DNA of 64,000 nucleotides, taken from positions 1 to 64,000 of the IMG/VR virus record IMGVR_UViG_3300032314_000513. The stretch is one strand, 5' to 3'. The position numbers were made by a program, and so were the translations under genes. Shown piece after piece: positions 13,601 through 60,483 of this stretch (the stretch's first letter is position 1; each line of letters begins with the position of its first letter). The stretch is from a virus (Duplodnaviria; Caudoviricetes). The notes beneath the pieces were generated by a model. The model was not told the DNA's origin. It made no database searches and worked only from the letters and a program-made list of their open reading frames with translations.

Positions 13601-13601
13601 A

Positions 13602-42910: not shown

Positions 42911-43186
42911 ATGGGAGCAACTAATATTTGGTCTAAAACAATTACTAATGATTCATTAACTGTATCAGCTAGTCAAAATGTAGTTAGAATATCAATTTTA
43001 GCTAGACAAGGACCTGTAACTCTTTTAGGTACAGCAACCTTTAATGGTGCTGCATCAGATTTAGTTACTTTTGCTACGGGCCAAGGTGTAACACTAACTG
43101 CAGCATCAACACAAAATCCAATTGATGGAGTATCTATAAATGTTGCAGGTGGTGGAATAGCAGATGTAGTATTATCTTATCAATAA
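42911..43186 (+). CDS. Small all-beta protein (vertex or fibre-base candidate)
   Basis: 91 aa with alternating beta pattern, located before the fibre genes. Confidence 0.45.
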   Translation: MGATNIWSKTITNDSLTVSASQNVVRISILARQGPVTLLGTATFNGAASDLVTFATGQGVTLTAASTQNPIDGVSINVAGGGIADVVLSYQ

Positions 43187-43215
43187 AAATATTAAAACAA
43201 AAAAAAATCATAAAA

Positions 43216-43614
43216 ATGGAAGAATTTATCCTATCGGAAACAAGAACAATTTTTAACAAAGCCATAAAAAGATTTGCAAAAGATAATAAGAAAGACCAAT
43301 TAGATGTGTCTTTCCTTTTGCGTTTGACTCCTGAACGAGAAGTTGGTTATATGTATTGTCAAGACCATGCTCCATTCAGGGAAACTAGTATTAAAGAGAT
43401 ACTAAATGTTAGAGCTTTTGATATGAAGGGATATACTGTTTTAGTTCCCCCTCAAATCAAAAAAATAATAGAGAATTTAGAATCTCAATTAAGCTCTACA
43501 AATGTTGAAGTTTGTGTATATCTTGATAGAGAAGATGAAGAAGAAATTCGTTATTTTGTATATCAAGATGGTAAATATATAAAGGAAGTTAATTTACTTG
43601 AATTGATTAAATAA
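43216..43614 (+). CDS. Hypothetical protein
   Basis: 132-aa ORF with aaaatcataaaaATG leader. Confidence 0.65.
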   Translation: MEEFILSETRTIFNKAIKRFAKDNKKDQLDVSFLLRLTPEREVGYMYCQDHAPFRETSIKEILNVRAFDMKGYTVLVPPQIKKIIENLESQLSSTNVEVCVYLDREDEEEIRYFVYQDGKYIKEVNLLELIK

Positions 43615-43620
43615 TTTGTA

Positions 43621-46600
43621 ATGAGTAGTACATTTTTAGGAGGAGATACTTTTAGTTTTATTAGTGGCGGTGCCGGTGGTGGCGGTGGAACTGATGGTTC
43701 TGCAGGTACATCAGGCGTATCAGGAACTTCAGGTACATCAGGTACTCTAGGTACTAGTGGTATAAGCTATGGCTCTAGTGGTACTAGTGGAACTAGTGCT
43801 TCTTCAGGTACTTCAGGCTCAACAGGTTTAACAGGTTCAAGCGGTACTTCAGGTGCAGGTGGTTCTAGTGGTACTTCAGGAAATTCAACTGCAGGTACTT
43901 CAGGTACAACAGGTTCAAGCGGTTCAAGTGGTTCAAGTGGTGTGAGTGGAACAAATGGTACAGCAGGTTCAAATGGTACATCAGGCTCTAGTGGAAATAA
44001 TGGCTCTAGTGGTACTTCAGGTGCTGCAGGGTCAAGCGGTAATAGTGGTACTAGTGGTGTCAATGGTACTAGTGGAACATCAGGTTCTACAGGTACATCA
44101 GGTTCTTCTGCCTCTTCAGGAACTTCAGGTTCTAGTGGTAGTGCAGGTACAACAGGTACGGATGGTAGTAATGGTACTTCAGGTTCAGCAGGTACTTCAG
44201 GTCGTGATGCAACTGCAGGAACAAGTGGTCGTGATGCGACTGCAGGAACAAGTGGTCGTGATGCGACTTCAGGTTTAGATGGTTCTTCAGGTACTTCAGG
44301 AATAGATGGTACAAATGGTTCTTCAGGTACTTCTGCATCAAGTGGAACTTCTGCAACTAGTGGAGCAAATGGTACTTCAGGTACAGATGGTACAAGTGGT
44401 ACTTCAGGTCGTGATGCAACTGCAGGTACTTCAGGACAAGATGCAACAGCAGGTACCTCAGGTTCTTCTGCAACAGCAGGAACTTCAGGTTCTTCTGCTT
44501 CTTCAGGTTCAAGTGGAACTAATGGTTCAAGCGGTACTTCAGGTACAACAGGCTCTTCAGGAACAGCAGGTTTATCAGGAGATAGATATAGAACGACCTC
44601 AAGTACTGAATTTACTTTATCAGGTTCAGGACAAATTACAATTACAATTGGTTTAGGCCTTTCTTACACAATAGGACAAGCTGTAACCATTGCTTACGAT
44701 ATTAACGACATTCAATTTGGTGATGTTGTATCTTATAATTCAAATAATGGAACTTTAGTATTTAATGCAACAACATTTACAGGTTCAGGAACATACAACT
44801 TTTGGACTGTAAACTTATCAGGTGCTGCAGGAGGAGATGGTTCTTCAGGTACTTCAGGTTCTTCAGGAACAAATGGTACTTCAGGTTCTTCAGGCACTAG
44901 TGGTACAAGTGCAAGTTCAGGTTCTAGCGGAACTACAGGAACAGATGGTTCTAGTGGTACAAGTGGAGTAGATGGTACTTCAGGTACTGATGGCTCTAGC
45001 GGTACTTCAGGCATTGATGGTACTTCAGGAACAGATGGTTCTAGTGGAACAGATGGTAGCTCAGGAACTTCAGGTTCTAGCGGAACTACAGGTACAGATG
45101 GTAGCTCAGGAACTTCAGGAACAGATGGTTCTAGTGGTACTTCAGGTACAGACGGAAGCTCAGGAACTGATGGTTCTTCAGGTACAACAGGTACAGATGG
45201 TTCAAGCGGAACAGATGGTAGCTCAGGTACAGATGGTAGCTCAGGAACTTCAGGAACTACAGGTACTACAGGTACTTCAGGTTCTTCAGGAACTAGTGGA
45301 ACTTCTGCAACTTCAGGTTCAAGTGGAACTTCAGGTACAGATGGTAGCTCAGGAACTTCAGGCTCATCAGGAACTACAGGTACCTCAGGAACTTCAGGTT
45401 CTTCAGGAACAGATGGTTCTAGTGGTACTTCAGGCTCTAGTGGAACAACAGGTACTTCAGGTACTTCTGCAACAGCAGGTTTATCAGGAGATAGATATAG
45501 AACAGCCTCTACAACTTCTGCAACTTTAGGAGTTAGTGGTACTATAACAATCGGTTTATCTTTAGCATACACCTCTGCTCAAACATTTATAATGACTTAT
45601 GATAGTTCAAACTATCAAATTTGTCAAGTAGTTACATATAATCCTTCAAATGGATTATTAACATATTCAGCACCTGTTACAGTTGTAGGTTCAGGTACTT
45701 ATGATGTATGGGTTGTTAACTTAGCAGGAGCTTCAGGAACTTCAGGTTCTTCAGGTACTTCTGCATCAAGTGGAACTTCAGGTACAACAGGTACTTCAGG
45801 TACGGATGGTAGTTCAGGAACTTCAGGTTCTTCAGGTACTTCAGGTTCAAGTGGAACTTCAGGTTCTTCAGCTACTTCAGGAACTTCTGCCTCTGCAGGA
45901 ACTAGTGGTAGTTCAGGAGCAGCAGGAGATAGATATGCTACTACTTCAGTAGAAACATTTACATTAGGAAATAGTGGTTCATTAACCGTATCTCCTAATT
46001 TATCATATACTGTAGGTCAATCAATTATTATAGCTTATGATATTAATAATTACCAAGAGTGTAATGTAGTATCTTATACAGCTGTTCCGGGTATATTATA
46101 TTTTGATGCTCCTACAATAACAGTAGGTAGTGGAGAATATAGCTCATGGGAAATTAACTTAAATGGTGCTACAGGTGGTGCAGGTTCAAGTGGAACTTCA
46201 GGTTCTGCAGGAACTTCAGGAACTACAGGAACAGATGGTTCATCAGGAACAAGTGGTACAAGTGGTACAGACGGAAGCTCAGGTACAACAGGTACTGATG
46301 GTTCTAGCGGTTCTTCAGGTACTTCAGGTGAATCAGGTTCTTCAGGAACGAGTGGTAGCACAGGAACTTCAGGAAGCTCAGGAACAAGTGGTTCTTCAGG
46401 TACTTCAGGAGTAAGTGGTGCTAGTGGAACTTCAGGTTCTTCAGGTACAGATGGTAGCAATGGCACAAGTGGTAGCTCAGGTTCAAGTGGTACTGATGGT
46501 AGTAATGGAACTAGTGGTACAACAGGTACTAGTGGAACAGATGGTTCTAGTGGTACTTCTGCTGCTGATGGAACAAGCGGTACTTCAGGAGAAAATGGTA

Positions 46601-46794
46601 CTTCAGGAACTACAGGAACAGATGGTTCAAGTGGTACTGATGGAAGTAGTGGAACTTCAGGCACAGCAGCAACAGCAGGTACAGCAGCAACTTCAGGATT
46701 ATCTACTTTAATGGCAGGAACAAGTGGAAGTACAATTACTATTCCACCTGCAGAAGCAACTACTAGTACAACAACAACTACTACAACAGTCTAA
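43621..46794 (+). CDS. Gly-X-Y (Ser/Thr-rich) collagen-like fibre with three internal beta-domains
   Basis: GTS/GSS/GTD triplets. Repeated GDRY.T.S...GSG.Y..W..NL.G domain at ~44570, ~45480 and ~45920. Confidence 0.8.
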   Translation: MSSTFLGGDTFSFISGGAGGGGGTDGSAGTSGVSGTSGTSGTLGTSGISYGSSGTSGTSASSGTSGSTGLTGSSGTSGAGGSSGTSGNSTAGTSGTTGSSGSSGSSGVSGTNGTAGSNGTSGSSGNNGSSGTSGAAGSSGNSGTSGVNGTSGTSGSTGTSGSSASSGTSGSSGSAGTTGTDGSNGTSGSAGTSGRDATAGTSGRDATAGTSGRDATSGLDGSSGTSGIDGTNGSSGTSASSGTSATSGANGTSGTDGTSGTSGRDATAGTSGQDATAGTSGSSATAGTSGSSASSGSSGTNGSSGTSGTTGSSGTAGLSGDRYRTTSSTEFTLSGSGQITITIGLGLSYTIGQAVTIAYDINDIQFGDVVSYNSNNGTLVFNATTFTGSGTYNFWTVNLSGAAGGDGSSGTSGSSGTNGTSGSSGTSGTSASSGSSGTTGTDGSSGTSGVDGTSGTDGSSGTSGIDGTSGTDGSSGTDGSSGTSGSSGTTGTDGSSGTSGTDGSSGTSGTDGSSGTDGSSGTTGTDGSSGTDGSSGTDGSSGTSGTTGTTGTSGSSGTSGTSATSGSSGTSGTDGSSGTSGSSGTTGTSGTSGSSGTDGSSGTSGSSGTTGTSGTSATAGLSGDRYRTASTTSATLGVSGTITIGLSLAYTSAQTFIMTYDSSNYQICQVVTYNPSNGLLTYSAPVTVVGSGTYDVWVVNLAGASGTSGSSGTSASSGTSGTTGTSGTDGSSGTSGSSGTSGSSGTSGSSATSGTSASAGTSGSSGAAGDRYATTSVETFTLGNSGSLTVSPNLSYTVGQSIIIAYDINNYQECNVVSYTAVPGILYFDAPTITVGSGEYSSWEINLNGATGGAGSSGTSGSAGTSGTTGTDGSSGTSGTSGTDGSSGTTGTDGSSGSSGTSGESGSSGTSGSTGTSGSSGTSGSSGTSGVSGASGTSGSSGTDGSNGTSGSSGSSGTDGSNGTSGTTGTSGTDGSSGTSAADGTSGTSGENGTSGTTGTDGSSGTDGSSGTSGTAATAGTAATSGLSTLMAGTSGSTITIPPAEATTSTTTTTTTV

Positions 46795-46815
46795 TAAAAT
46801 ATAAAATAAATATAA

Positions 46816-48699
46816 ATGTCTTATTCTAATATTACCATAACCACTAACACAGGTTTATCATTTTATCCCGGCCAATATGTTCAGGTGATACATGATGAGA
46901 ATAACTATATTTTTGGTCAAGTAGTAAGCTATGACCCTAATACAGGAATTTTTACTTTTTTACCTACAAATTTTTTAGGAGCAGGAACTTTTAATACATG
47001 GACTGTGGTGGCATCTGCTGTTTCAGGTTCAAGTGGTACTTCAGGTTCAAGTGGAACTTCAGGCTCTTCAGGTACAGACGGAAGCTCAGGTACAGACGGA
47101 AGCTCAGGTTCAAGTGCAAGTTCAGGAGAAAGTGGAACTTCAGGTACATCAGGAGTAAGTGGTGCTAGTGGAACTTCAGGCTCTTCAGGAACTGATGGCT
47201 CAAGTGGTACTTCTGCATTAGATGGAACTAGTGGAACGACAGGAACTTCAGGAACTACAGGAACTAGCGGAACAGATGGTAGTTCAGGTTCAAGCGGTAC
47301 ATCAGGTTATGATGGAACAGCAGGAACTTCAGGCACTAATGGAACTGCAGGTACTTCAGGAGAAAATGGAACAAGCGGAACAGATGGAAGCTCAGGTACA
47401 GATGGAAGCTCAGGAACATCAGGCACTAACGGAACAGCAGGAACAAGTGGAAGCTCAGGAACAGCAGCTACATCAGGTTTAAGTGGTGATTTATATAAAA
47501 CAACAACAACTGATTCAATTGATTTAGGAACATTAGCTCCGGGTGATGGTATAAATATTACTGTAGCAACAGGATTAGCATACACAATAGGTCAAACTGT
47601 AGTAGTATCTAATAGTATAACTGATTATTTAGAAGGAAATGTTAGTTCATACACATCTATTGATGGTGCAATGGAAATATTAATAGTTACTATAGTTGGT
47701 ACAGGTATATTTACTTCTTGGGAAGTTAACTTAGCAGGAGCAGCAGGAGGAGATGGTACAGCAGGTACTTCAGGCTCTGCAGGAACAAGCGGAACTAATG
47801 GAACTGATGGTTCTTCAGGTTCTAGTGGTACAAGTGGAGAAAATGGAACAAGCGGTACTTCAGGTTCTAGTGGTACTAATGGAAGCTCAGGAGAAACAGG
47901 TACTTCAGGTACAACAGGAACATCAGGTTCTAGCGGTACTAGTGGAAATGAAGGTGCTGATGGTAATTTAGCAGAATGGTTATATAACCCAAGCCCTGAT
48001 ACTACAACAAATCCCGGAAGTACAAAATTTACATTAGACATTAACTCATGGGGAGAAACTGTAACTAGCATTGCGATTAGTGATAACGCATATAATCCTG
48101 CAGTAAATTTTTCTACATACTTAAATTTCATTGGAGCAAATACTGTTATTAGATTAACAAGTTTAATAGATAAATCTACTTTTAAGTTTTTAAAAGTAAT
48201 TACAAATACTCCTCTTACAGCAGGTTTTGAAAACTATGATGTAACACAAATTGGTAGTGGTGGTACTGACCCTGCTCCAAATGCTGTATTCTATTTTAAT
48301 ATTATTGGTGTAAGTGGTACTTCAGGAACAAGTGGAACTAGTGGAAGCTCAGGTACTTCTGCTTCTGCAGGAACAAGTGGAAGCTCAGGTACAAATGGTA
48401 CAGCAGGTACTTCAGCATCTTCAGGTAGTAGCGGTTCTTCAGGAACTAGTGGTACAAATGGTACAGCAGGTACTTCTGCTTCATCAGGAACTAGTGGTTC
48501 ATCAGGAACAAGTGGTAGCTCAGGTACTTCAGCTTCTAGCGGTACTTCAGGAACAGATGGAAGCTCAGGTACAGCGGCTTCTTCAGGTTCTAGTGGAACA
48601 GCAGGTACTTCAGCATCTTCAGGAACTGCAGCAACCTCAGGTAATTCATCAACATATAATGGTACTTCAGGAACAACACAAACATTACCTTTGACTTAG
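46816..48699 (+). CDS. Gly-X-Y Ser/Thr collagen-like fibre, second subunit
   Basis: Starts with a truncated beta-domain, has one full internal copy plus another globular insert, and ends with an isolated first strand. Confidence 0.8.
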   Translation: MSYSNITITTNTGLSFYPGQYVQVIHDENNYIFGQVVSYDPNTGIFTFLPTNFLGAGTFNTWTVVASAVSGSSGTSGSSGTSGSSGTDGSSGTDGSSGSSASSGESGTSGTSGVSGASGTSGSSGTDGSSGTSALDGTSGTTGTSGTTGTSGTDGSSGSSGTSGYDGTAGTSGTNGTAGTSGENGTSGTDGSSGTDGSSGTSGTNGTAGTSGSSGTAATSGLSGDLYKTTTTDSIDLGTLAPGDGINITVATGLAYTIGQTVVVSNSITDYLEGNVSSYTSIDGAMEILIVTIVGTGIFTSWEVNLAGAAGGDGTAGTSGSAGTSGTNGTDGSSGSSGTSGENGTSGTSGSSGTNGSSGETGTSGTTGTSGSSGTSGNEGADGNLAEWLYNPSPDTTTNPGSTKFTLDINSWGETVTSIAISDNAYNPAVNFSTYLNFIGANTVIRLTSLIDKSTFKFLKVITNTPLTAGFENYDVTQIGSGGTDPAPNAVFYFNIIGVSGTSGTSGTSGSSGTSASAGTSGSSGTNGTAGTSASSGSSGSSGTSGTNGTAGTSASSGTSGSSGTSGSSGTSASSGTSGTDGSSGTAASSGSSGTAGTSASSGTAATSGNSSTYNGTSGTTQTLPLT

Positions 48700-48709
48700 A
48701 AAATATAAA

Positions 48710-51031
48710 ATGAATAATATAAATCCAAATACCTTATTAGCTGCTAGTGGAAATAATAACCCTACTAATAATAATATTCGTACTCTAATTCAATTTTTAT
48801 GGCAAGTACAAGGAGCAACTTCATATTATCCAACACCTATTGGTATAAATGATATAGGATATGGAGCAAGTGATGAAACATTCTTTTTTAATGGAGTAGA
48901 TTCAGATTTATTAAGTTCTAATTATCAAGAAGATATATTCATAGTAGTAAGGAATTTGACAAGTATAGCTCCTTATGACCAAACTTATGATATAAGATAC
49001 GCTAATAATGCAAATGAATTAATTCAAATTGCAAATTCATATTTATTCGAAGGTCAATCAGCTTATACAAATACAAGTACAGCAATTAATGGGATGTTAA
49101 ATAGTAACATTCTAATTATGCCATATAATTTACCAAATTTTTCAACTAATTTACAAGTTGTTCCTACAGATGGAGATGCAGGAAATTTAGGTATCGTATG
49201 CGGTTTTATTTCAGGATTTACCTCTTGTATATCAAAATATCTTACAACACCTGCATTAGTTAGATGTTTTACATCAGGATACACACAAGGTGATAATGTT
49301 GGAACTTATATGTCTAACAACACAAACCCAATTGTTTTAAGTTATGCAAATAATTATGCAATTCAAATGGTTGAGGGGGAAAATTTAGAATTAAATAATA
49401 CAGGTGATATTCCTAATGGTTCAGAATCTTTTTCTTTTAGTTGTTGGTTTAAAGCAGATAATACATCTACTACACAAGTTTTGGCATCATGGGGATATAT
49501 TCAAGTACAAATAACAAACAACAATGTTCAAATACTTGTTAATGGAACTTATCAAGATTTAGGTGGAAGTGTTTTATCTGCAGATACTTGGTACAATGTA
49601 TTTTTTACATACGATACAACAAGTTCCTTATTAAGTTATGAGCTATTTAATTTTAGTGGCTCTATTGATTCAGGTAATACAACTGTTGCTATAAATAACC
49701 CAACTCAAAACTTTTATTTAAGTGATTCTACAAATGTTGACAGTTTTGTAGGTTACATTAAATCTTGCATGTTGTATTCATTTACATTATCTCAGAATCA
49801 AATAGATAGTGATTATGCTAATATGGTGGCTTTAGTTAATGCTACACCATCAGCTCCAACAACAACTACAACTAGTACTACTACAACAACAACTACAATT
49901 TGTGCACCATATATTAATAATATTATTATTTCTAATGGTTCTTATACTGCTGCCAATGGAACTTATACAAGAGCTAATCCTTCAGAAGCTTTTGCTCTAA
50001 CAGGTGGAGGTGGTTCTATATTCTTTGGTGGTGATGCTTGGTATATTTTTAATACTGCAGTTGGTAATGTTGCAAGAAATACCTCTCAGCTAGGTACAGG
50101 AACTTGGGAACCTTGGGCTCCGGGAAATTCAACAGGAATTACTGCAGAGTATTCTAGTTATGTTTGTCCAACAACGACAACTACGACAACTAGCACCACA
50201 ACTACTTCTACAACGGAAGTTCCTACAACTACAACTAGCACCACAACTACTTCTACAACGGTAGCTCCTACTACTAGTACGACTACGACAACTAGTACAG
50301 CATCAGGAGGTCTCGTTACAGATGGATTAATAGTTAATTTAGATGCAAGTAATCCTTCTTCTTATTCAGGCTCAGGTAATACATGGACTGACTTAACAGG
50401 TAATGGATATAATGCAACAAGACAAGGTTCTGTACCATTTACTTCAGCAGGTCAACAATCTTATTTTGGTTTTAGTGGCTCAAGTTCTAATTACTTCTTA
50501 GGTAATAGTAATTTATATGGATTTAACTCTAATCAAATTAGTGGAACTGTTGGTATAACTGTTTCAATGATATTTAGACCATCAAATACTAGTACTAGAA
50601 GCACTTTATGGTCAACTTACGCAAGTGATAAAGGAAGTGTTTTTGAAATTGGAACATTAGGTGGATTATGGACAAATACATTAAGACAGTATTTAAGTGA
50701 TAATGGTCCTATTCGTAGCTCTGATAATAGAGGTGGTGCAAATACAATATCAAATGGAACAACTTACTTAATGACAGTTACTTGGAATCAATCAACTTTT
50801 ACAAGTACTATGTATGTAAATGGTAGTGCAATTGCACAAAGTAATGTTGGTTTTAATAAAAATAATATAACTTCAGCTTGGGCTAACTCAGCTAACTATA
50901 ATTTAGGAGGAGACCCAACTCAAACAGGTACTTATGGAAATTTATATACTGCTTATGTATACAATAGACCATTGACAGCAGGAGAAGTGTTACAAAACTA
51001 TAACGCATTACAATCAAGATTTGGATTATAA
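48710..51031 (+). CDS. Receptor-binding candidate with two LamG/ConA-like domains and poly-Thr linkers
   Basis: FSFSCWFK...TWYNVFFTY. LVTDGLIVNLDASNPSSYSGSGNTWTDL...YNRPLTAGEVLQNYN. Confidence 0.75.
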   Translation: MNNINPNTLLAASGNNNPTNNNIRTLIQFLWQVQGATSYYPTPIGINDIGYGASDETFFFNGVDSDLLSSNYQEDIFIVVRNLTSIAPYDQTYDIRYANNANELIQIANSYLFEGQSAYTNTSTAINGMLNSNILIMPYNLPNFSTNLQVVPTDGDAGNLGIVCGFISGFTSCISKYLTTPALVRCFTSGYTQGDNVGTYMSNNTNPIVLSYANNYAIQMVEGENLELNNTGDIPNGSESFSFSCWFKADNTSTTQVLASWGYIQVQITNNNVQILVNGTYQDLGGSVLSADTWYNVFFTYDTTSSLLSYELFNFSGSIDSGNTTVAINNPTQNFYLSDSTNVDSFVGYIKSCMLYSFTLSQNQIDSDYANMVALVNATPSAPTTTTTSTTTTTTTICAPYINNIIISNGSYTAANGTYTRANPSEAFALTGGGGSIFFGGDAWYIFNTAVGNVARNTSQLGTGTWEPWAPGNSTGITAEYSSYVCPTTTTTTTSTTTTSTTEVPTTTTSTTTTSTTVAPTTSTTTTTSTASGGLVTDGLIVNLDASNPSSYSGSGNTWTDLTGNGYNATRQGSVPFTSAGQQSYFGFSGSSSNYFLGNSNLYGFNSNQISGTVGITVSMIFRPSNTSTRSTLWSTYASDKGSVFEIGTLGGLWTNTLRQYLSDNGPIRSSDNRGGANTISNGTTYLMTVTWNQSTFTSTMYVNGSAIAQSNVGFNKNNITSAWANSANYNLGGDPTQTGTYGNLYTAYVYNRPLTAGEVLQNYNALQSRFGL

Positions 51032-51057
51032 AAAAAACCATAAAAAACTAAAAAACT

Positions 51058-51855
51058 ATGCCATACGCAGATTTAACATTTCAACTTCAGCCTAATCTGA
51101 GATTTGTTGCAAATGATTTTGTAACACTAACAGGTGTTAACTATACTACTACAACTAGTACTACAACTACTACAACTACATTGAATGTAATAAGTAGTGG
51201 ATTGCAATTATATGTTGATGCTAGTAATCCTGCTTCATATTCAGGAACAGGAAGTACATGGTATGATTTAAGTGGAAATGGTTATAATGGTACATTAAGT
51301 GGTAGTACAGCTTATAATTCTGCAAACGGTGGTTATATTTCCACACAATCTAATACAGGATATATAGATTTTGGTCTTTCTTCTCAAGGAAGTAGTACTA
51401 GTGCTTTTACTTGGGGTGGTTGGTTTAATGTTCCAAGTTTTACAAATATCCCTATGGCAAGAGGCAATGATATGACAGGAGGTTATCCCAATGGATGGAA
51501 TCTTGCTACTGTATTCTTGTCAAACGCATTTAATGCTTCAATAATCACTTCTGTACCCGGTATAACTCAAACAAATAGTTCATACTCTTCAAGTCCAAGT
51601 AGTAATACTTGGTATAATCATATATCAGTATGGAATCCGGGAGTAAGTTTAAAAGTATATATAAATGGTGTTTTAAGAGCTACTGTAAATACTTCAAATA
51701 CAGTTTTAAGAAATTCAGGTACAGGTTGGAATAGTTCAAATGATGCTACAAAGTATAACGCTAGTTATGGTTCAATGATTGTTTATAATATAGCATTGAG
51801 TGATGCACAAGTTCTTCAAAACTTTAATTCAACTAAAACAAGATTTGGATATTAA
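51058..51855 (+). CDS. Half beta-domain + poly-Thr linker + LamG-like domain
   Basis: MPYADLTFQLQPNLRFVANDFVTLTGVNY-TTTT-GLQLYVDASNPASY...YNIALSDAQVLQNFN. Confidence 0.75.
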   Translation: MPYADLTFQLQPNLRFVANDFVTLTGVNYTTTTSTTTTTTTLNVISSGLQLYVDASNPASYSGTGSTWYDLSGNGYNGTLSGSTAYNSANGGYISTQSNTGYIDFGLSSQGSSTSAFTWGGWFNVPSFTNIPMARGNDMTGGYPNGWNLATVFLSNAFNASIITSVPGITQTNSSYSSSPSSNTWYNHISVWNPGVSLKVYINGVLRATVNTSNTVLRNSGTGWNSSNDATKYNASYGSMIVYNIALSDAQVLQNFNSTKTRFGY

Positions 51856-51867
51856 AAATTAAAAATT

Positions 51868-52104
51868 ATGAAAAAATATTTAATATTATTTTTATTATTA
51901 TTTAGCATTAATTCTTATTCTCAAGTAGATAGCACTAAAAGAGCAGCAGCTAGACAAGAATGGTTATCTAATAAAGATAATTGGAGTAATGGTCAATCGA
52001 TGCCTAATTGGGATTTGGATGGTAATATTATACCAATAGTGGGTATTTTATTAATATCATCCATATTTTTAAAAAGAAAGAATAAATTAAGGTTTGGACT
52101 ATAA
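51868..52104 (+). CDS. Small secreted/membrane protein with Bacteroidota-style signal peptide
   Basis: MKKYLILFLLLFSINSYSQ and a C-terminal DLDG-hydrophobic-KRK segment. Confidence 0.6.
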   Translation: MKKYLILFLLLFSINSYSQVDSTKRAAARQEWLSNKDNWSNGQSMPNWDLDGNIIPIVGILLISSIFLKRKNKLRFGL

Positions 52105-52115
52105 AATAATTAACA

Positions 52116-53117
52116 ATGGCTAACGCATCAATATATGGAAGAGTAGTAAGTTATAATACCGTAACAGGCGTTATGGTGGTAACACCGCTTTCTTATTCAG
52201 GAGATGCAGGTTCTTATAGTACTTGGACTGTCTCATTAGATGGTCAAAATGGTACTTCAGGAACTTCAGTTATTTCAGGAACAAGTGGAACAAATGGAAG
52301 TTCAGGTACTTCAGGCACTAGTGGTACATCAGCTTCTTCAGGTTCTTCAGGAACAAGTGGAAGTGCAGGTACTTCAGCTTTATCTAATTCATCAGGTACA
52401 TCAGGTACAAGTGGTTCTGCAGGTACAAGTGCTGTACAAGGCGGTCAAGGTCCTACAGGTGCAACAGGTCCTCAAGGCCCTCAAGGATTAGGTGGTTCTT
52501 CAGGAACTTCAGGCTCTTCAGGTGCTACAGGTCCTCAAGGACCAATAGGAGCTCAAGGTCCTCAAGGATTTACAGGTAATCCGGGTCCGACAGGTCCTAC
52601 AGGTGCAACAGGACCACAAGGCCCAACAGGTACTTCTGCAAGTTATAATCAAGATAATAATGCAGGAGCATCAGTTACATTTACTTATCCTACTACTACA
52701 GGTACTTTTTATGCAGGAAGTAGATTTTATATGCCCGGTGACGCTTATTTAGGAATAGCAGGAAGTTATGGTCCTGTTTGGTTTGGATTTAACTTTGGTT
52801 GGGCTAGTAATGCAGGATTAGGAGGGGCATACTTTTTTAACTCATCTTCAAGAGAATCTAAAAAAGAAATTAAGCCATATACTGATTCTGCAACTGAAAT
52901 AATTAATAGCACAGAAATAGTTACTTTTGATATGGAAAGTGGAGAACATACTCATATAGAACATATTGGTTTTATTGCAGAAGATACTCCGCAAGAATTA
53001 TCAACTCCTGACCATAATGTAATGGATATTACAAACACAGTTGGAGTTGTTTTAAAAGCAATTCAAGAAATTGATGATAGAATAACAGCATTACAAAATA
53101 AAAATAACAATGGCTAA
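52116..53117 (+). CDS. Collagen-like tip fibre 1 with S74-like chaperone domain
   Basis: Half beta-domain, GTS and GPQ repeats, then SSRESKKEI...IGFIAED...KAIQEI. Confidence 0.8.
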
Positions 53118-54174
53118 CGCAACTTTTAATTGCTCACCTAATTTAAGCTATGTAGCAGGAGATTTCGTACAGCTAAGTTACGATGCGAATAACTATGTTA
53201 TTGGTACGGTAGTGTCATATAATGATATAACAGGTGTTATGGTAATTACTCCTGTACAATCTATTGGAAGTGGAACTTATTCTATATGGAATGTTGCTTT
53301 GACAGGTAATGCAGGTACAGCAGGAACTAATGGTACAGCAGGAACAGCAGGTTCAAGTGGAACTTCAGCTTCATCAGGTACTGCAGGTACTGCAGGTAGT
53401 TCAGGTACAAGTGGTTCGGCAGGTACAAGTGCATTTTCAGGTACAAGTGGTACATCAGGTACTAGTGGTTCGGCAGGAACGAGTGCATCCTCAGGAACTT
53501 CAGGAGCTATTGGACCAACAGGTGCTCAAGGTCCTCAAGGACCAATAGGTGCAACAGGAACTTCAGGTTCATCAGGAGTTTCAGGAGTTAATGGTCCAAC
53601 AGGACTAACAGGTGCAACAGGTCCTACAGGTGCAACAGGTCCGCAAGGTCCTGCTACTCCCGGTCCAACAGGACCAACAGGTTCTCCCGGAGGTCAAGGT
53701 CCACAAACAGTTTATAATCAAGCATTAACAACTAGTTCAAATGTTACTTATGGTGATATGGCTAGTAATAGCCCATTAGCAGGTGGTAACTTTTTAGTAC
53801 CTAATGGAGGTAAAGTTTCTAATAGTGCTAATCAAGGTGTAAGTTGGTATGGTAATAGTGGTACTTGGTTTTCTTATGGCTCTATAGGTTCTGCATATTT
53901 CTTTGGAACTTCTACAAGAGAAGTAAAAAAGAATATTCAACCTTTTACTAAATCAGGTATAGACCTTATCAAACAAACAGAAATTGTATCTTATAAGTAC
54001 GAAAATGAAACAGTTTATACTGATTTAACAAAAATAGGATTCATTGCAGAAGAAACACCTGAAGAAATGTCTTCAAAAGACCACGACCAAATGGTAATAA
54101 ATTCTACAATATGTGTAGCTATGAAAGCAATTCAAGAGTTAGATGAAAAAATTAAAAACTTACAAAATAAATAG
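53110..54174 (+). CDS. Collagen-like tip fibre 2 with S74-like chaperone domain
   Basis: N-truncated beta-domain, GPT/GPQ repeats, then STREVKKNI...IGFIAEE...KAIQEL. Confidence 0.8.
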
Positions 54175-54176
54175 AT

Positions 54177-54539
54177 ATGACAATTAATGATATTAAATAT
54201 ACATGGGAAATAACTCATTTACATGTAGCACCATCAAAAAACAATCAAAATAATGTAGTTACAAAAATTGCCTTTACTTTACATGGTGAATATACCAATG
54301 AAGTAGGTCAATTTTTTAGTGAATTTTGGACAGGAGCAACATTAATAGAATTTGATGAAAATTCTTCATTTACAAATGTTGACCAAATAACTCATGAAAT
54401 GGCTGTAAAATGGGTAGAAGATTCTGAAAACAAAAAACAAAGAAATGTAAATTGGATTAAAAATAAAGTATTAACAAGACTTCAAGAAAAAATTAATCCA
54501 AGTGTAGTAGTAATTACTCCTCCTTTTGCACAAAAATAA
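54177..54539 (+). CDS. Fibre-associated hypothetical protein
   Basis: YTWEIT...NVVTKIAFTLHG...ITHEMAVKWVE, located between tip fibres. Confidence 0.55.
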   Translation: MTINDIKYTWEITHLHVAPSKNNQNNVVTKIAFTLHGEYTNEVGQFFSEFWTGATLIEFDENSSFTNVDQITHEMAVKWVEDSENKKQRNVNWIKNKVLTRLQEKINPSVVVITPPFAQK

Positions 54540-54549
54540 TTAAGAAACA

Positions 54550-55623
54550 ATGCCTTATTCTAATTTGACATTTACTGTAAATACAAATCTTTCATTTGTA
54601 GCAAATGATTTTGTACAGCTTAGTGCAAATTCTACCAATTATATTATTGGAAGAGTAGTGTCATATAATCCTAGCACAGGTGCATTAATTATAACTCCTT
54701 TAGAATCAGTTGGTTCAGGCTCTTATAGTTCATGGACTGTTGCATTAACAGGATTTTATGGAACTTCAGGAACATCAGGTACGGCAGGTACTATGGGCTC
54801 TTCTGCTACAAGTGGATTATCAAGTTCATCAACTGCTGCAGGTTCTTCAGGTACATCTGCATCAAGTGGTAGTTCAGGCATTGCAGGTTCAAATGGTACA
54901 TCAGGTGCATCTGCTTCTTCAGGTTCTTCAGGTTTAGCAGGAGCTAATGGTGCAACAGGACCACAAGGTCCAATAGGCCCAACAGGTGCTCAAGGACCTC
55001 AAGGAGCTAGAGGTACATCAGGTTCTAGTGGTGTTAATGGAGGAACAGGTCCGCAAGGTCCTCAAGGAGCTAGAGGTCCGCAAGGCCCAACAGGAGCTAG
55101 TCCACAAGGTCCAACAGGTCCAACAGGTCCGCAAGGTCCTTCAAATACAAATGGTCAATCATTAAACTATGGTGATTCTCCAACATTTGCTAGTATAACT
55201 GCAAATGGACAAGTTTATTCTGCATCAAATATTAGAAATAATGGTGGTGTAAGAGGTATGTATGTAAATGGATATGGCATATATTTTTACAATAATACTT
55301 CAAGTCAATGGTATAGTAATGGTGGAATTGGTGCAGGTGGTGGTAATTTTTTCCCTGCATCTACTAGAGAAGTTAAAAAGAATATTGAGCCTTTTACTAA
55401 ATCAGGTTTAGATATAATAAACAGTACAGATATTGTTTCTTTTGAGTTTGAGATTACAGGACTTGAAGGACAAACACACATAGGATTTATTGCAGAAGAT
55501 ACCCCTGAAGAATTAGCTACTAGTACTCATGACCAAATGGTTGTACCTTCTAATTTAGGTGTTGTTATGAAAGCTTTACAAGAATTAGATGAAAAATTAA
55601 AAATATTAGAGAATAATACTTAA
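54550..55623 (+). CDS. Collagen-like tip fibre 3 with S74-like chaperone domain
   Basis: N-truncated beta-domain, GPQ repeats, then STREVKKNI...IGFIAED...KALQEL. Confidence 0.8.
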
Positions 55624-55652
55624 ATTTATATTTACAAAAAATAACCACAAAA

Positions 55653-56264
55653 ATGAACACATCAAAATTAAATACATCTATAGTTTTCCCTAAGGAAACA
55701 GTTGATTCTCAAAATTATTATTTTTTTAACCCCGGTTTTTCATCAGAAGAATTAGATATAATTTATAAAGGGGTATCTTTACTTCCATTCAAACCTGCAA
55801 TTATTGGCAATTATGAAGAAAATCCTGAAATTAGGACTTCTTCTATAAAGTGGGTTCCACCAACAGATGAGTGGAGATGGCTTTATGAGAAAATGATGCA
55901 CCAAATAGTTGAAGCAAATAATGCTATTTGGCATTTTGATTTAGATTATTTAATAGACAATATACAATACACAGAATATTATGCAGAAAATGGCGGTCAT
56001 TATACTTGGCATCAAGATGTTGGTCCGGGTGAAATGTCCAAAAGAAAAGTTAGTATAACTGTACAATTATCAGACCCTAGTGAATATGAGGGAGGTGATT
56101 TAGAATATTTTCAAGGCGGAAACCCTGATGAAGCTGTAAAAGCACCAAAAGGCAAAGGGGTTGTATTTATATTCCCTTCTTACATGATGCACAGAGTTAC
56201 AAAAGTAACTAAAGGAGTTAGGCGTTCTTTTGTATTATGGGTAGGTGGTGAGCATTATAAATAA
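55653..56264 (+). CDS. 2OG-Fe(II) oxygenase (PKHD/prolyl-hydroxylase type)
   Basis: YTWHQD, RKVSITVQL, FPSYMMHRVTKVTKGVRRS. Confidence 0.85.
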   Translation: MNTSKLNTSIVFPKETVDSQNYYFFNPGFSSEELDIIYKGVSLLPFKPAIIGNYEENPEIRTSSIKWVPPTDEWRWLYEKMMHQIVEANNAIWHFDLDYLIDNIQYTEYYAENGGHYTWHQDVGPGEMSKRKVSITVQLSDPSEYEGGDLEYFQGGNPDEAVKAPKGKGVVFIFPSYMMHRVTKVTKGVRRSFVLWVGGEHYK

Positions 56265-56269
56265 TTTAT

Positions 56270-56755
56270 ATGCAATCTATTATATTTAAGGCTAATATAG
56301 ATAGACCTTTTACAAAAGACGAAAGGCAAAGTTTTGTTAAATATTTAAGAAATGTAGCTAATATTGAAGCTCATGTCAAAAATGCAAAAACAAAAAATAT
56401 GTCTGTTTTATCAGAACCTGATTTAATAGATATAAAAGCATTTTGTTTAAATTCAATATATAAATACAGCAATAATACTGATATTTCTATTACAGAATCA
56501 TGGTTGAATTTTTCTATGCCCGGTGAGTCTCTTCATTCTATTAATTATCCAAATAGTTTTATTAGTGGTATATTCTATGTAAATGCTCGTATATCATTGC
56601 ATAATATTATATTTTCAGAAATTGGAGAAACAATTAGTGCAGGTAGAGGTGATTTATTACTATTTCCATCAAATTTATTACATCATGAGCCTAAAAATAC
56701 AGGTAATGATTTAAAGATAAGTCTAGCTTTCAATACAACAAAACCAATAAAATGA
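56270..56755 (+). CDS. TIGR02466-type 2OG oxygenase, degenerate metal site
   Basis: SWLN...LHSINYPNSFISGIFY, where the paralogs have HxHxNS. LLLFPSNLLH. Confidence 0.65.
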   Translation: MQSIIFKANIDRPFTKDERQSFVKYLRNVANIEAHVKNAKTKNMSVLSEPDLIDIKAFCLNSIYKYSNNTDISITESWLNFSMPGESLHSINYPNSFISGIFYVNARISLHNIIFSEIGETISAGRGDLLLFPSNLLHHEPKNTGNDLKISLAFNTTKPIK

Positions 56756-57567
56756 TTCAGCAAATATTCTATAATAGCAGTTTACCTAGGTCAGGAAGCA
56801 CATTATTACAAAATGTATTTAATCAAAACCCTGATATGTATGCTACACCAACAAGTGGAGTTATAGAGTTTTTAGAAGCTGCAAGAGTTATTTATGTACA
56901 AGCTGAATTTAAAGCTCAAGAGGTAAATACAATGGAAAAGGCTGTATTATCATTTTGTAGAGAAGGAATGAAAGGTTATGCTAATTCTATAACTAATAAA
57001 CCATATTTTATAGATAAAAGTTTTTATTGGGGTATGAATTATGATTATTTAAAATCAATTTTTGGATATGAACCTAAGATAATCATTATGATAAGAGATG
57101 TTAGAGACATATTTGCATCATTTGAATCTAATTTTAGAAAGAACCCATTAGTAATTAATCCTTTAGTAAGTTGGCCTGATTTGAAGAATACAACTATGGA
57201 AAAAAGAATAATTGATTGGACAAAAACTAAACCACTTGGTGTTGTATTTGATGGCTTAAAAGACATAATTAACTACAGAAATAGCTCTAAAATATTATTC
57301 ATTAAATATGAAGATTTTTGCCAAAACCCTAAAGAAGAAATGGCTAAAGTTTATAACTATTTAGAATTGCCATATTTTAATCATAATTTTAATAATGTAG
57401 AACAAACTACTAAAGAGAATGATGTATTCTATTTTGCAAGTCATGATATTAGAAATATAGTAGAGAAGAAAGAATCAAAAGCAGAACAAATTATAGGTAA
57501 ACCTGCATGTAATTGGTTATATAAAAACTATGATTGGTTCTTCCAATACTTTAAATATGATAAATAA
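56752..57567 (+). CDS. Sulfotransferase
   Basis: PAPS-binding loop SLPRSGSTLL, IIMIRDVRDIFAS and IKYEDF. Confidence 0.85.
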   Translation: MIQQIFYNSSLPRSGSTLLQNVFNQNPDMYATPTSGVIEFLEAARVIYVQAEFKAQEVNTMEKAVLSFCREGMKGYANSITNKPYFIDKSFYWGMNYDYLKSIFGYEPKIIIMIRDVRDIFASFESNFRKNPLVINPLVSWPDLKNTTMEKRIIDWTKTKPLGVVFDGLKDIINYRNSSKILFIKYEDFCQNPKEEMAKVYNYLELPYFNHNFNNVEQTTKENDVFYFASHDIRNIVEKKESKAEQIIGKPACNWLYKNYDWFFQYFKYDK

Positions 57568-58197
57568 TTATACAATATTATTTATTTCTAAGTAATTAAC
57601 TCCGTCATTTTCCATTCCAATTTTACCTTCATAAAAAGAATTAAAAGCTAAACTTATTCTAGTTTGTGTACTAGTAGTTTCAGGAACGCCATGAAAAACA
57701 TGAGAAGGGAATAATACCATAGCTCCTGTTCTTATTGGTAAATGATATAAATGTGAATTATAACCATTATGATTTTGAACATCAAATTGCCAATGTGATA
57801 TCTCTTTTGTATTAGTAAATACTATTTCATCATTATTAATATCTGCTTGTATGTATATAACACCACTAACAATACTATTAGGATGAAAGTGTTGGTGATG
57901 GTTTTCACCCGGTTCTGTAATATTTGTCCATGATTGAGTTAACTTTAATCTAACTTCATTTGGTCTTGCAGGGGAATTAATTTCCATAAACCATTGGTCT
58001 AAACCTTCTTGTGCAAACTTTTTAAGATTTGCCATAGCAGGGTCTTCTAAAACTCTATGATTATATGAACCTTCGTTTCCTACGCTGAATCCTAATTCTT
58101 GTCCTTTAATACAATCTATCTCTTCTTTTGTAAACTCTCTACCAATATCAAATGTCATTAATGGAGTAGCAAATATTCTTAGTGTGTCTAATTTCAT
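57568..58197 (-). CDS. TIGR02466-type 2OG-Fe(II) oxygenase
   Basis: Minus strand (CAT at 58195-58197); the track strand label is wrong. HHQHFHPNSIVSGVIY, VLFPSHVFH and RISLAFN. Confidence 0.85.
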   Translation of the reverse strand: MKLDTLRIFATPLMTFDIGREFTKEEIDCIKGQELGFSVGNEGSYNHRVLEDPAMANLKKFAQEGLDQWFMEINSPARPNEVRLKLTQSWTNITEPGENHHQHFHPNSIVSGVIYIQADINNDEIVFTNTKEISHWQFDVQNHNGYNSHLYHLPIRTGAMVLFPSHVFHGVPETTSTQTRISLAFNSFYEGKIGMENDGVNYLEINNIV

Positions 58198-58838
58198 TAT
58201 TTTATATTTAATTGATTAATTCCTTTTAATGGTCCGTCAATATATCCTACAGTTCCTGTTATGAAAGAGCTAAAAGCTAAACTAATTCTAACATAATTAT
58301 AATTATTTACAGGTGTGCTATGGTATAAATTAGCAGGGAATATTATTATATCTCCTGTATTAACGCTATTATGAAAATGACTAGCATTAAACGCAGTTGA
58401 TTCTTTTGATTGTATCTGCCAATTAAATTCTGTTTCAGTTTTAGTAAAAATAATACTATCCTTATCTCTATAAGCATTAATGTAAAGTACACCACTTAAA
58501 AATGAATTATAGTGTTTATGCTTTTCGTGAAATTTTCCCTGAGTTGTAAAATTTAACCAAGATTGTGTAATTCTTAATTTTACATCATTCGGGTTTATAG
58601 GGTCATATATTTTATAAAAGTATTGATTTAATGCTTCTTCACAAAAATATTTTATATCAGACAACCTTTCATCATCAAAAACATTATTATCATTTGAAAC
58701 TATAGATTCTGTTTTTGTATTTAATTTATCATAATGTTCCAATACGCAAGTCATCTCATCTTTTGTAAAATCTCTGTTTATTTTATTACTCATTATTACA
58801 GTTGGAAATAATGGTGTAATCTTACCTTCTTCTATCAT
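58197..58838 (-). CDS. TIGR02466-type 2OG-Fe(II) oxygenase
   Basis: Minus strand. HEKHKHYNSFLSGVLY, IIFPANLYH and RISLAF. Confidence 0.85.
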   Translation of the reverse strand: MIEEGKITPLFPTVIMSNKINRDFTKDEMTCVLEHYDKLNTKTESIVSNDNNVFDDERLSDIKYFCEEALNQYFYKIYDPINPNDVKLRITQSWLNFTTQGKFHEKHKHYNSFLSGVLYINAYRDKDSIIFTKTETEFNWQIQSKESTAFNASHFHNSVNTGDIIIFPANLYHSTPVNNYNYVRISLAFSSFITGTVGYIDGPLKGINQLNIK

Positions 58839-59902
58839 AAATTTTGTTTTATTTCATTTAATACAGTTTGCATACTAATTGATTTATGACATTCAAAATG
58901 TCTAGGCGTACCTTCATGCTCAGGACACCAAGTCCAATCTCCTTTATTAAACTTAAATACAGGATTATTCCAACAACTATTGCAAACTTTATCATTAGTT
59001 ATACGAATACAATTAGATTGAAATTCATGCTCTGAGTTAGTAAAGTTACTAATCATAACTGTCTTTTTTTGAATACCCCAATTTAACCAACTAATACCAC
59101 TAGAAAGTCCTATAAACAAATCAGCATGATGTAAGTAATTCATAGCAACATCTAAAGATGTATCTTCTAGTTTTTCAGCCCCCACATCATCAGCTTCTTT
59201 TGATAGTTCAATTACTCTATAACCCATATTTTTCAATTCCTGTATTAATTCAGGCCAATAGTACCAATGTTTACATTGAGCAGTAGAACGAGTAGATATA
59301 CATATATATTTATCTATTGGCTTTTCGGATGGCGTAAAAGCTATTCTAGGTTGTATTTCTTTATAATCTAATGCTAATATATTACTAGCAGATTGTTGTA
59401 AAGGAACTGTTGCAGGATGAAAAGGTTCTTTATCTTTATCCCAAAACCAACCAAGTTCTACTTGAGCAACTATATTATTAACCACAACTCCTCTTCCAAC
59501 AAACTCAAGTTCAGGGTAAACTGATTGAAATAGCTCATTTCTAAAAGAAGATACTATTACATGGCATTTGTATTTTTCTTGAAAATCTAAGCAATATGGA
59601 ATCCACGCAATACTATCACCTAAACTTTTAGACTCAAATACAATAAATACTCTTTTGCCTACTATCTCATCTAGTAGGTTAATTTGTTTTACTACACGAC
59701 CTTGATAAGTCAATATAATAGATAAATCAGATAGATATTTTCTATTAAGTTTAATCCAAGATTGTGGCTTTATTTTTGTTTCATAAATGCCTACATTAAA
59801 TCTTTTGTCTATGACAGTAACATCATATTCTCTATTTTTACCTTCATCATTTAAAAGCTCAAAATGTAAACCATTTACATGAGATATTTTGTATTGTATC
59901 AT
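58835..59902 (-). CDS. TibC/Aah-like (autotransporter O-heptosyltransferase family) protein glycosyltransferase
   Basis: Minus strand. SKSLGDSIAWIPY, STAQCKHW, FIGLSSGISWL, and C-terminal Cys cluster CNSCWN...CPEH...FECHKSI. Confidence 0.75.
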   Translation of the reverse strand: MIQYKISHVNGLHFELLNDEGKNREYDVTVIDKRFNVGIYETKIKPQSWIKLNRKYLSDLSIILTYQGRVVKQINLLDEIVGKRVFIVFESKSLGDSIAWIPYCLDFQEKYKCHVIVSSFRNELFQSVYPELEFVGRGVVVNNIVAQVELGWFWDKDKEPFHPATVPLQQSASNILALDYKEIQPRIAFTPSEKPIDKYICISTRSTAQCKHWYYWPELIQELKNMGYRVIELSKEADDVGAEKLEDTSLDVAMNYLHHADLFIGLSSGISWLNWGIQKKTVMISNFTNSEHEFQSNCIRITNDKVCNSCWNNPVFKFNKGDWTWCPEHEGTPRHFECHKSISMQTVLNEIKQNL

Positions 59903-60483
59903 CTTTCAGTATTTAAAAAAAATGTTTGAAATAATCTTCCATCGGAAATATTTCTTCCAAAATAGTCTAATGAGACATGGAATAAATCACCCCTATATAA
60001 TATAAGCCTATTGTAAATATTACCTATTCTATCTACCATTTCCCATTTAGTATAATCAACTTGGTCTCTTGTATGTGGTCCACCTGTTAAATTTTCTTCT
60101 TCGCTATATTCTGAATGAATCCAACCTCTTAGTCCTGTTTTTTTGTGTCTATAAATACCTGTTCCTGCAGAAAGTGGTGCATCAGGAGTTAAATAAATAA
60201 CACCTGCCCATGAAGTAGTTCCATCAGTATGAATCCATGACCTATCGGCTGATGTTGTGTATTGAAAACATCCTGAATCTTTACCTCCCCACCAAGTTAC
60301 TTCTCCGCAAAGTGGTCTAATTATATCTTGTATTAAATCTTTAACTCCATCGTTTAGAAAAGGTTTAGTTCTTCTACCGGGAAAATGTCCTGCATCTTCA
60401 TAATATTCTTGTTCCATAGCAAACTTTCTTACTTCATCTACATTACTATAAAAATCAGCTATTGATATTACTTCTAGTCTCAT
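59899..60483 (-). CDS. 2OG-Fe(II) oxygenase (DUF6445-like)
   Basis: SWIHTD, WAGVIYL, NRLILYRGDLFH and RLFQTFF. Confidence 0.8.
   Translation of the reverse strand: MRLEVISIADFYSNVDEVRKFAMEQEYYEDAGHFPGRRTKPFLNDGVKDLIQDIIRPLCGEVTWWGGKDSGCFQYTTSADRSWIHTDGTTSWAGVIYLTPDAPLSAGTGIYRHKKTGLRGWIHSEYSEEENLTGGPHTRDQVDYTKWEMVDRIGNIYNRLILYRGDLFHVSLDYFGRNISDGRLFQTFFLNTER

Follow-up and report, generated by a model that had tools for sequence, protein, structure and literature searches.

The fibre genes described here lie on the first 64 kb of an 84-kb IMG/VR virus record (IMGVR_UViG_3300032314_000513; G+C ∼31%) from an uncultured freshwater bacterial virus; these 64,000 nucleotides (nt) are referred to as the window. 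Positions 43621-55623 of the plus strand encode a run of collagen-like proteins (Pfam Collagen), in which a small domain, predicted to be a six-stranded beta-barrel, is found both whole and as complementary pieces at the ends of neighbouring genes. Pieces were defined as A (strand 1-like), B (strands 2-3) and C (strands 4-6), and genes are named by their first nucleotide. The PF01391 cut-off of 27.2 bits was passed by 43621 (274 bits), 46816 (137 bits) and the three tip proteins (49-54 bits), and the PF13884 (Peptidase_S74, hereafter S74) cut-off of 22 was passed by the tips 52116 (29.8 bits), 53110 (31.6) and 54550 (31.6). All of the collagen-like proteins were labelled tail-fibre-like by PHROGs, mainly via the collagen repeats. 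No match to Pox_A32 or Terminase_6N was found across the 84-kb record, and the putative ATPase at 33319-34140 gave no PDB sequence match and a marginal PHROG terminase match (E 2e-4). As the virion type is not settled by these checks, the term virion fibre is used in place of tail fibre. The fibre genes and their terminal pieces are as follows, with lengths in amino acids (aa):

43621-46794, plus strand: fibre segment 1, 1057 aa, Pfam Collagen match at 2.2e-83
46705-46743, plus strand: class-1 piece A, TLMAGTSGSTITI, at the C-terminus of 43621, followed by PPAE and a poly-Thr tail
46816-48699, plus strand: fibre segment 2, 627 aa, with orthologues in the related loci L027, L060, L068 and L010
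48649-48687, plus strand: class-2 piece A at the C-terminus of 46816
51058-51855, plus strand: cargo protein, 265 aa, with piece B alone (51058-51144), poly-Thr and a LamG/ConA-like body
52116-53117, plus strand: tip 1, 333 aa, with piece C alone (52116-52244), collagen, tip domain and S74 (52845-52991; 7.7e-7)
53110-54174, plus strand: tip 2, 354 aa, with B+C (53110-53307), collagen, tip domain and S74 (53911-54063)
54550-55623, plus strand: tip 3, 357 aa, with B+C (54550-54753), collagen, tip domain and S74 (55360-55509)

Segment 1 consists of a 15-aa N-terminal peptide, long Gly-Thr/Ser-x collagen-like repeats, three intact barrels and the C-terminal class-1 piece A with its poly-Thr tail. 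Segment 2 is ordered as class-1 B+C (46816-47019), collagen, an intact barrel, a 114-aa insert termed NLAEW (47965-48306), collagen and class-2 A. The barrel domain is a non-collagen insert of 82 aa with the consensus GDxYxTTS....TL ... SYN..TG ... GSGTY..W.VNL.G, and is intact at four places:

44578-44823, plus strand: barrel 1, aa 320-401 of 43621, the copy that was modelled
45487-45729, plus strand: barrel 2, aa 623-703 of 43621
45925-46167, plus strand: barrel 3, aa 769-849 of 43621
47485-47739, plus strand: barrel 4, aa 224-308 of 46816

AlphaFold2, run on the seven window copies, predicted a closed six-stranded beta-barrel at a predicted local distance difference test (pLDDT) value of 84, with strands at residues 5-8, 18-23, 35-41, 44-54, 59-68 and 76-80. 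A Foldseek search against the PDB returned weak barrel matches only (F1/V1-ATPase N-terminal barrels and the JBD30 baseplate). The top match from an exhaustive structural aligner was residues 477-557 of the JBD30 hub, domain VI (Z 9.1, root-mean-square deviation 2.2 Å, 76 aligned residues), which is called a small six-stranded beta-barrel in PMC11445458 (PDB 8rk3). This best solved match is, like the domain described here, a small six-stranded barrel within a phage host-recognition organ; it differs in sequence (18% identity) and in lying within one chain, and the passages of PMC11445458 drawn on here mention no split or collagen context. In BFVD the model matched, with a template modelling score of about 0.9, many proteins from uncultured viruses that carry the label 'collagen triple helix repeat' and are uncharacterised, and a profile search recovered 4520 library representatives at E up to 0.001. 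The domain is not covered by any Pfam model.

Each cut lies within a loop of the predicted barrel, the first in the strand 1/strand 2 loop (residues 13-17) and the second in the strand 3/strand 4 turn (42-43). The genes 46816, 53110 and 54550 begin with B+C, profile positions 16-18 to 82 being matched by their residues 2-68. Gene 52116 begins with C alone (profile positions 43-82, residues 3-43), and cannot extend further 5' because an in-frame stop lies 9 nt upstream. Residues 2-25 of 51058 correspond to profile positions 16-39, with poly-Thr next; the match scored 13.3 bits, and none of 200 shuffles scored as high. The A pieces of 43621 and 46816 are Thr/Ser-rich peptides of 13-14 residues ending in T-I or T-L, and the lead-in TAATSG-xS precedes these pieces and the intact domains alike. 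Two classes of joint were distinguished. In class 1, A pieces of the form ..SG(S/D)(T/S)ITIPP are paired with starts of the form M(S/P)Y(S/A)NITIT; in class 2, ..Y(N/S)GTSGTT(Q/E)TLP is paired with MPY..(L/M)TF-type starts. The two joints of a virus that has both (window, L060, L068) belong to different classes.

The first-pass annotation of this DNA had reported an intact domain occurring four times internally and complementary pieces at gene ends, and every item that it listed was found by profile matching and by reading of the C-termini. It had further described the break in 52116 as an exact match to the NY/IIG junction of 54550. The C-only start was confirmed, and the agreement proved to be only within 2-5 residues, since a five-residue start of its own (MANAS) opens 52116. 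Piece A is present at the gene ends as described; it is not always terminal, and a poly-Thr tail, or poly-Thr and a small domain, may follow it.

Relatives' loci were gathered by protein, degenerate DNA pattern and exact-protein look-up, and were all scanned with a profile built from the window copies only. A census was then taken of 758 non-overlapping open reading frames (ORFs) from all distinct gathered loci. An A motif near the C-terminus together with collagen was present in 14 of the 758 ORFs, a count that describes the pattern and is no independent test of it, as the census motif was written after the data had been seen. The carriers belong to two clades: clade I (window, L010, L027, L060, L068 and L073) and clade II (L051, L053, L058, L064 and L065). 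In all 14 cases the next gene downstream, or the next but one, starts with B+C or B, and every B+C start with a visible upstream neighbourhood has an A donor upstream within its fibre gene cluster. B-only genes were followed by a C-only S74 tip in 8/8 fully seen cases (window, L010, L060, L068 twice, L071 and L073 twice), and no C-only tip lacking a B-only gene was found among the census loci. Domain starts among Met-starting library representatives cluster at profile positions 16-20 and 43. The candidate P0005, considered as a distant C-only start, was rejected as a gene-call artefact inside a 1605-aa open frame.

The arrangement of the pieces varies between relatives. In L010 a 1258-aa fibre protein ends in ...YSGTSGTTETLPPA and is followed by two B+C tips, a DUF7936 protein, a B-only protein of 208 aa carrying poly-Thr and a Cys-rich domain, and a C-only tip with the start MSDNY|IIGRVVSYN. 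L027 has a 686-aa fibre protein with a class-1 A and poly-Thr end, then a 944-aa B+C protein in which a 46816-like part runs into an S74 tip. In L060 a 601-aa protein (A, poly-Thr and an 85-aa Cys domain) precedes a 653-aa protein (B+C ... A and poly-Thr), after which come a 124-aa protein (B, poly-Thr and a small domain), a C-only tip and two B+C tips. L068 carries two B-only LamG genes, each with a C-only tip after it, and L071 and L073 are alike. The class-1 A motif with its tail also occurs in the 686-aa protein of L027, the 601-aa protein of L060 and a 573-aa protein of L068. Genes neighbouring the clade II loci are unrelated to those of clade I. The clade II donor is a globular protein of 210-217 aa with ∼10 collagen triplets and the ending ...Y.G.S....IT(L/I), followed directly by a long protein beginning with B+C; searches of Pfam, PHROGs and the ESM Atlas returned nothing for the donor protein. 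Complementary pieces with fixed breakpoints in neighbouring genes are thus conserved in relatives of two clades. Random, non-complementary breakpoints, named in the first-pass annotation as the pattern that would count against it, were not what the relatives showed: the same two loops are cut and the neighbours are complementary.

The cargo behind piece B varies (LamG-like, a 180-aa Cys-rich domain or an ∼85-aa Cys domain) and always stands behind poly-Thr. The ∼85-aa Cys domain also occurs behind A and poly-Thr, in the 601-aa protein of L060 and the 573-aa protein of L068. For 51058 itself, Pfam gave only a weak Sialidase N-terminal match (E 0.04); a 49%-identical homologue (L068:8216-8986) matches Laminin_G_3 (PF13385) at 6.6e-13. 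AlphaFold2 on full-length 51058 gave a pLDDT of 32.6, and the model was unusable for the LamG fold.

A-to-B junctions are in frame in 7 of 11 cases, with 1-4 stops and 1-6 codons between, as in ...TLPLT*VMPYAD of L068 and L073. Such junctions are expected if a stop arose inside the strand 1/strand 2 loop of an intact domain, and point to fission in place. The gene order of L068 and L073 (A / B-poly-Thr-cargo / C-tip) is colinear with the intact domain. The frames also bear on the idea that the parts are joined covalently by stop read-through, frameshifting or an intron and are split at the DNA level only, for which the seven in-frame junctions and the single stop found in five of them (L051, L064, L060 653>124, L068 728>257 and L073) could be cited. 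Against this stand the several in-frame stops in other spacers (four in the window 43621>46816, three in L027, two in L010), the remaining A-to-B junctions, which are out of frame, and the B>C junctions, where the frame is not kept and an entire cargo domain intervenes. No Rfam family, introns included, was matched in 43000-56000 at E up to 1. Contigs of four DNA sequencing runs contained no clean fused or skipped form, only repeat-driven joints at poly-Thr and collagen stretches. Covalent joining is considered very improbable.

Fused and split forms alternate between close relatives. In L077 (protein P0153) B and C lie within one gene, 89% identical to 52116 and directly behind a gene ending in class-2 A; comparison of the window with L077 DNA places a ∼980-nt cassette at 51145-52124, with G(T/C)TAAC on either side. 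In the window the 54550-type tip is a single gene, and its orthologues in L009 (88% identical), L010 and L068 each consist of a B-cargo gene and a C-only tip; in L009 the 3' end of the LamG gene was seen upstream of the C-only tip. As each split form carries its own lineage's piece B, the strand 3/strand 4 turn was opened at least twice. In L010, and likewise in L027, one of the two joints is missing altogether.

These changes could have produced mere fission and insertion debris, the pieces making no contact with each other. Cassettes would have entered a tolerant loop, a stop would have arisen in the strand 1/strand 2 loop, and the tips would attach otherwise; the cassette (poly-Thr, cargo, stop and new start) would have borrowed the tip gene's start and first 29 codons. 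Consistent with this, a single cassette bounded by a 6-nt near-repeat separates fused from split forms, the A-to-B junctions are in frame with few stops between, piece A is not found by a strand-1 profile, and the complex fold described below gives weak support. Useless peptides should decay, yet the piece B profile match (positions 16-40) is kept in 8/8 B-only N-termini, at 11.8-23.8 bits with 0/200 shuffles as high in each case. The ratio of nonsynonymous to synonymous substitution rates (dN/dS) in piece B is 0.23-0.40 among orthologues (25 codons only), and by this measure piece B, carried on three different cargo proteins, is under purifying selection. Piece A is retained in two clades, and the C-only tips keep full-length frames and S74 domains across lineages that are 78-92% identical. 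The same turn was split in two tip lineages, each with the piece B of its own lineage, and no other docking element is visible at the N-termini of the tips. Debris without contact is therefore held to be unlikely.

The most likely reading of the locus, to which a probability of about 0.6 is given on comparative sequence evidence, is that the fibre has non-covalent joints made by strand complementation. The fibre would consist of separate trimeric collagen-like proteins joined end to end, each joint being a six-stranded barrel rebuilt from different chains. Piece A of the upstream protein, right behind its last collagen repeat, would complete the B+C of the downstream protein, and the three A strands of one trimer would fill the three barrels left open in the next, and the resulting knob would resemble the intact ones inside the segments. 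The order 43621 -> 46816 -> tip would be determined by the two joint classes, which differ in their A and strand-2 sequences, and the class-2 A of 46816 could take any of the three S74-chaperoned tips. The barrel of tip 1 would be cut twice, with strands 2-3 supplied by the separate poly-Thr/LamG-like protein, so that a three-chain joint would display a lectin-like cargo. It is the physical complementation, the stoichiometry and the class-based ordering that we infer. The three interchangeable tips and the grafted lectin, both suggested in the first-pass annotation, are reasonable proposals from the gene layout.

Chains would exit the barrel through poly-Thr behind A and behind B alike, in some cases leading to the same small domain, and such exits fit loops on the surface of a barrel that is really assembled. 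Collagen helices are nucleated from the C-terminus, where 43621 and 46816 lack a trimerisation domain; capture of A by a tip knob could therefore nucleate the segments. On a speculative view, assembly would run from the tip backwards, a folded tip knob capturing three A strands and nucleating each upstream segment in turn. A broader proposal, of a universal split-barrel connector with orthogonal classes that fix the order, alternative tips, three-chain Thr-linked lectin-like cargo and tip-backwards assembly, is offered tentatively.

A number of observations weigh against strand complementation. A profile made from strand 1 of 138 intact domains of other proteins fails to retrieve piece A, which lacks the GD(R/K)Y hallmark. 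With a position matrix, ten A pieces aligned in the expected register (Tyr on Y4, T-L on T13-L14) and scored -5.6 to +7.7, and 420 collagen-exit segments scored -17.5 +/- 6.7 with a maximum of -0.1; composition-matched shuffles gave p values of only 0.01-0.2 per A piece, and the pieces are not independent. As the likeness in sequence is weak, the equation of A with strand 1 rests mainly on position, frame and neighbourhood. Most clade I contigs are close relatives, so that the census counts overstate the number of independent events, the independent part being the two clades plus the distant L010 and L027. Toggling between fused and split forms by a G(T/C)TAAC-flanked cassette shows that simple insertions make these splits. 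One donor trimer faces three tip types, a stoichiometry left without explanation. The complex fold, finally, is weakly supported and gives no interface.

This fold was calculated for three chains, the C-terminus of 46816 and the N-terminus of 52116 with the N-terminus of 51058 as partner. The score was 0.43 and that of the best control 0.00, with agreement between runs in at least 84% of contacts and a partner pLDDT of at least 57. In calibration the mark was reached by 58/80 solved complexes and 2/110 mismatched pairs, a rough guide as custom alignments were used; at 0.60 or under, it was reached by 7/80 solved complexes and both mismatches. Docking by strand complementation, as set out in the first-pass annotation, thus draws its support from comparative genomics, and the model lends weak support to the rebuilding of the barrel from its pieces.

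The weak resemblance of piece A to strand 1 would also be in keeping with B+C as a five-strand domain able to stand alone, whose binding partner could be, for example, the host, the collagen stalk or a tail or capsid protein; the motif at the C-terminus would then only cap the collagen or signal its registration. On this view the two would be neighbours through a common role in the fibre and not through strand insertion. N-terminal copies can be almost complete, since a few library proteins start close to profile positions 4-7. The B-only/C-only pairs would be left unexplained, as would the identical lead-in before A and the intact domains, the in-frame A-stop-B junctions and the donor upstream of every visible acceptor. 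An autonomous B+C domain is judged quite unlikely, and joining by strand complementation is retained.

Three further genes lie within the fibre cluster:

48710-51031, plus strand: 773 aa, several poly-Thr linkers, LamG-like module at the C-terminus, PHROG 24074
51868-52104, plus strand: 78-aa ORF in the inserted cassette, with a signal-like N-terminus and a hydrophobic C-terminus
54177-54539, plus strand: DUF7936 protein, 120 aa, Pfam 1.7e-11

The 773-aa protein contains no barrel piece. It sits between the donor A and the acceptors in the window only, and its gene is missing from the equivalent place in L068, L073 and L077. The 78-aa ORF is absent from relatives, in which (L068, L060, L073) 11-14 nt separate the B gene from the C gene. 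It ends in ..RFGL, as does the LamG gene 48710, and 51058 ends in ..RFGY; the shared ends suggest duplication of a 3' end with its spacer. The DUF7936 protein adjoins the tip genes in all clade I relatives; in the window, L010, L060, L066, L068, L071 and L073 its gene always stands among them. It may serve specifically in the assembly of the tips or be a small component of the fibre.

The N-terminus of 43621, with just a 15-residue peptide (43621-43665), differs from those of relatives. The first fibre protein of L010 (4912), L027 (7916), L060 (507) and L068 (4281) begins with a Cys-rich domain of ∼50 aa (MNVTC..CPVILDSTCVFYEGP...). The relatives' first fibre gene sits behind a protein of 1500-1750 aa, and 43621 sits behind small membrane proteins. 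One fibre module seems to be mounted on different virion anchors. The NLAEW insert of ∼114 aa in the segment-2 collagen is conserved in L010 (4912-8688, about aa 1045-1160) and L027 (10001-12835), and a second insert (ANWYG..., ∼150 aa) is present in the first segment of L010 and L027; neither insert matched a Pfam family. The block directly behind the fibre genes is conserved in all clade I relatives (window 55653-60483, L010 13526-17433, L027 13291-17233 and L068 13289-19002). This block encodes 2OG-Fe(II) oxygenases (one of them prolyl-4-hydroxylase-like, PF13640), a sulfotransferase and glycosyltransferases, which might modify the fibres, for example at the GPQGP repeats of the tips or the poly-Thr linkers. 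Elsewhere in the window, large proteins with ART-PolyVal, DUF5661 and LPD29 'polyvalent protein' domains are encoded at 11768-15221, an unusual cargo at this virus size.

Donor-strand complementation and exchange between subunits is known from chaperone-usher pili and from the type V pili of Bacteroidota. The proposed fibre would be like these pili in that an incomplete beta fold is completed by a strand of the next subunit, giving a non-covalent fibre of ordered subunits. The pilus fold is Ig-like and lacks its last strand, whereas here a six-strand barrel lacks its first strand or its first three; the pilus donor is an N-terminal extension, whereas the candidate donor here is a C-terminal peptide behind a collagen helix; and the units here are viral and, as proposed, trimeric. 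No chaperone or usher family was among the Pfam and PHROG matches of the fibre module, and we know of no three-chain version with cargo in pili.

Among phages, multi-protein fibres are exemplified by the T4 long tail fibre (gp34-gp35-gp36-gp37; PMC5537660). It is likewise built from separately encoded trimeric segments placed end to end, with the receptor-binding part last and the genes in order. T4 segments differ in that they are not collagen-like and need dedicated chaperones. To our knowledge no joint of T4 has been described in which two genes share a single domain. Receptor-binding proteins (RBPs) that are branched or docked through an adaptor are found in Klebsiella phages, CBA120 and G7C. 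There too a conserved N-terminal module docks exchangeable RBPs on an anchor and provides several specificities per virion; complete anchor domains and docking peptides are used in those systems, not pieces of one fold. No T4 gp10-like anchor domain is named among the Pfam and PHROG matches of the fibre proteins, lists which do not exclude one. The three tips combine collagen repeats with an S74 domain that passes the Pfam cut-off at the C-terminus; in this they resemble collagen-like S74 phage fibres, and their N-terminal split-barrel acceptor lies outside the description of that family. A search of the literature on strand complementation in phage fibres and on interrupted viral collagens found no description of the arrangement, although subscription journals were mostly outside the search and absence is unproven. 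The arrangement works like pilus donor-strand systems and adaptor-docked RBP systems and is a member of neither.

The joining of multi-protein virus fibres and the exchange of their receptor-binding parts are known in detail for few model phages. If strand complementation holds, the division of one small barrel between genes would be a joining principle both new and simple. It would account for the folding of collagen-like segments that lack a C-terminal trimerisation domain of their own, and would make clear by what means a single fibre can bear alternative tips and sugar-binding additions. The joint would be a compact natural connector of about 14 + 68 or 14 + 29 + 40 residues. On the broader proposal it would also be a natural counterpart of split-protein tags, in which tips or adhesins would be swapped through single cassette events. 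Given the large Pfam-less barrel family, it would also annotate many uncharacterised viral collagen-repeat proteins.

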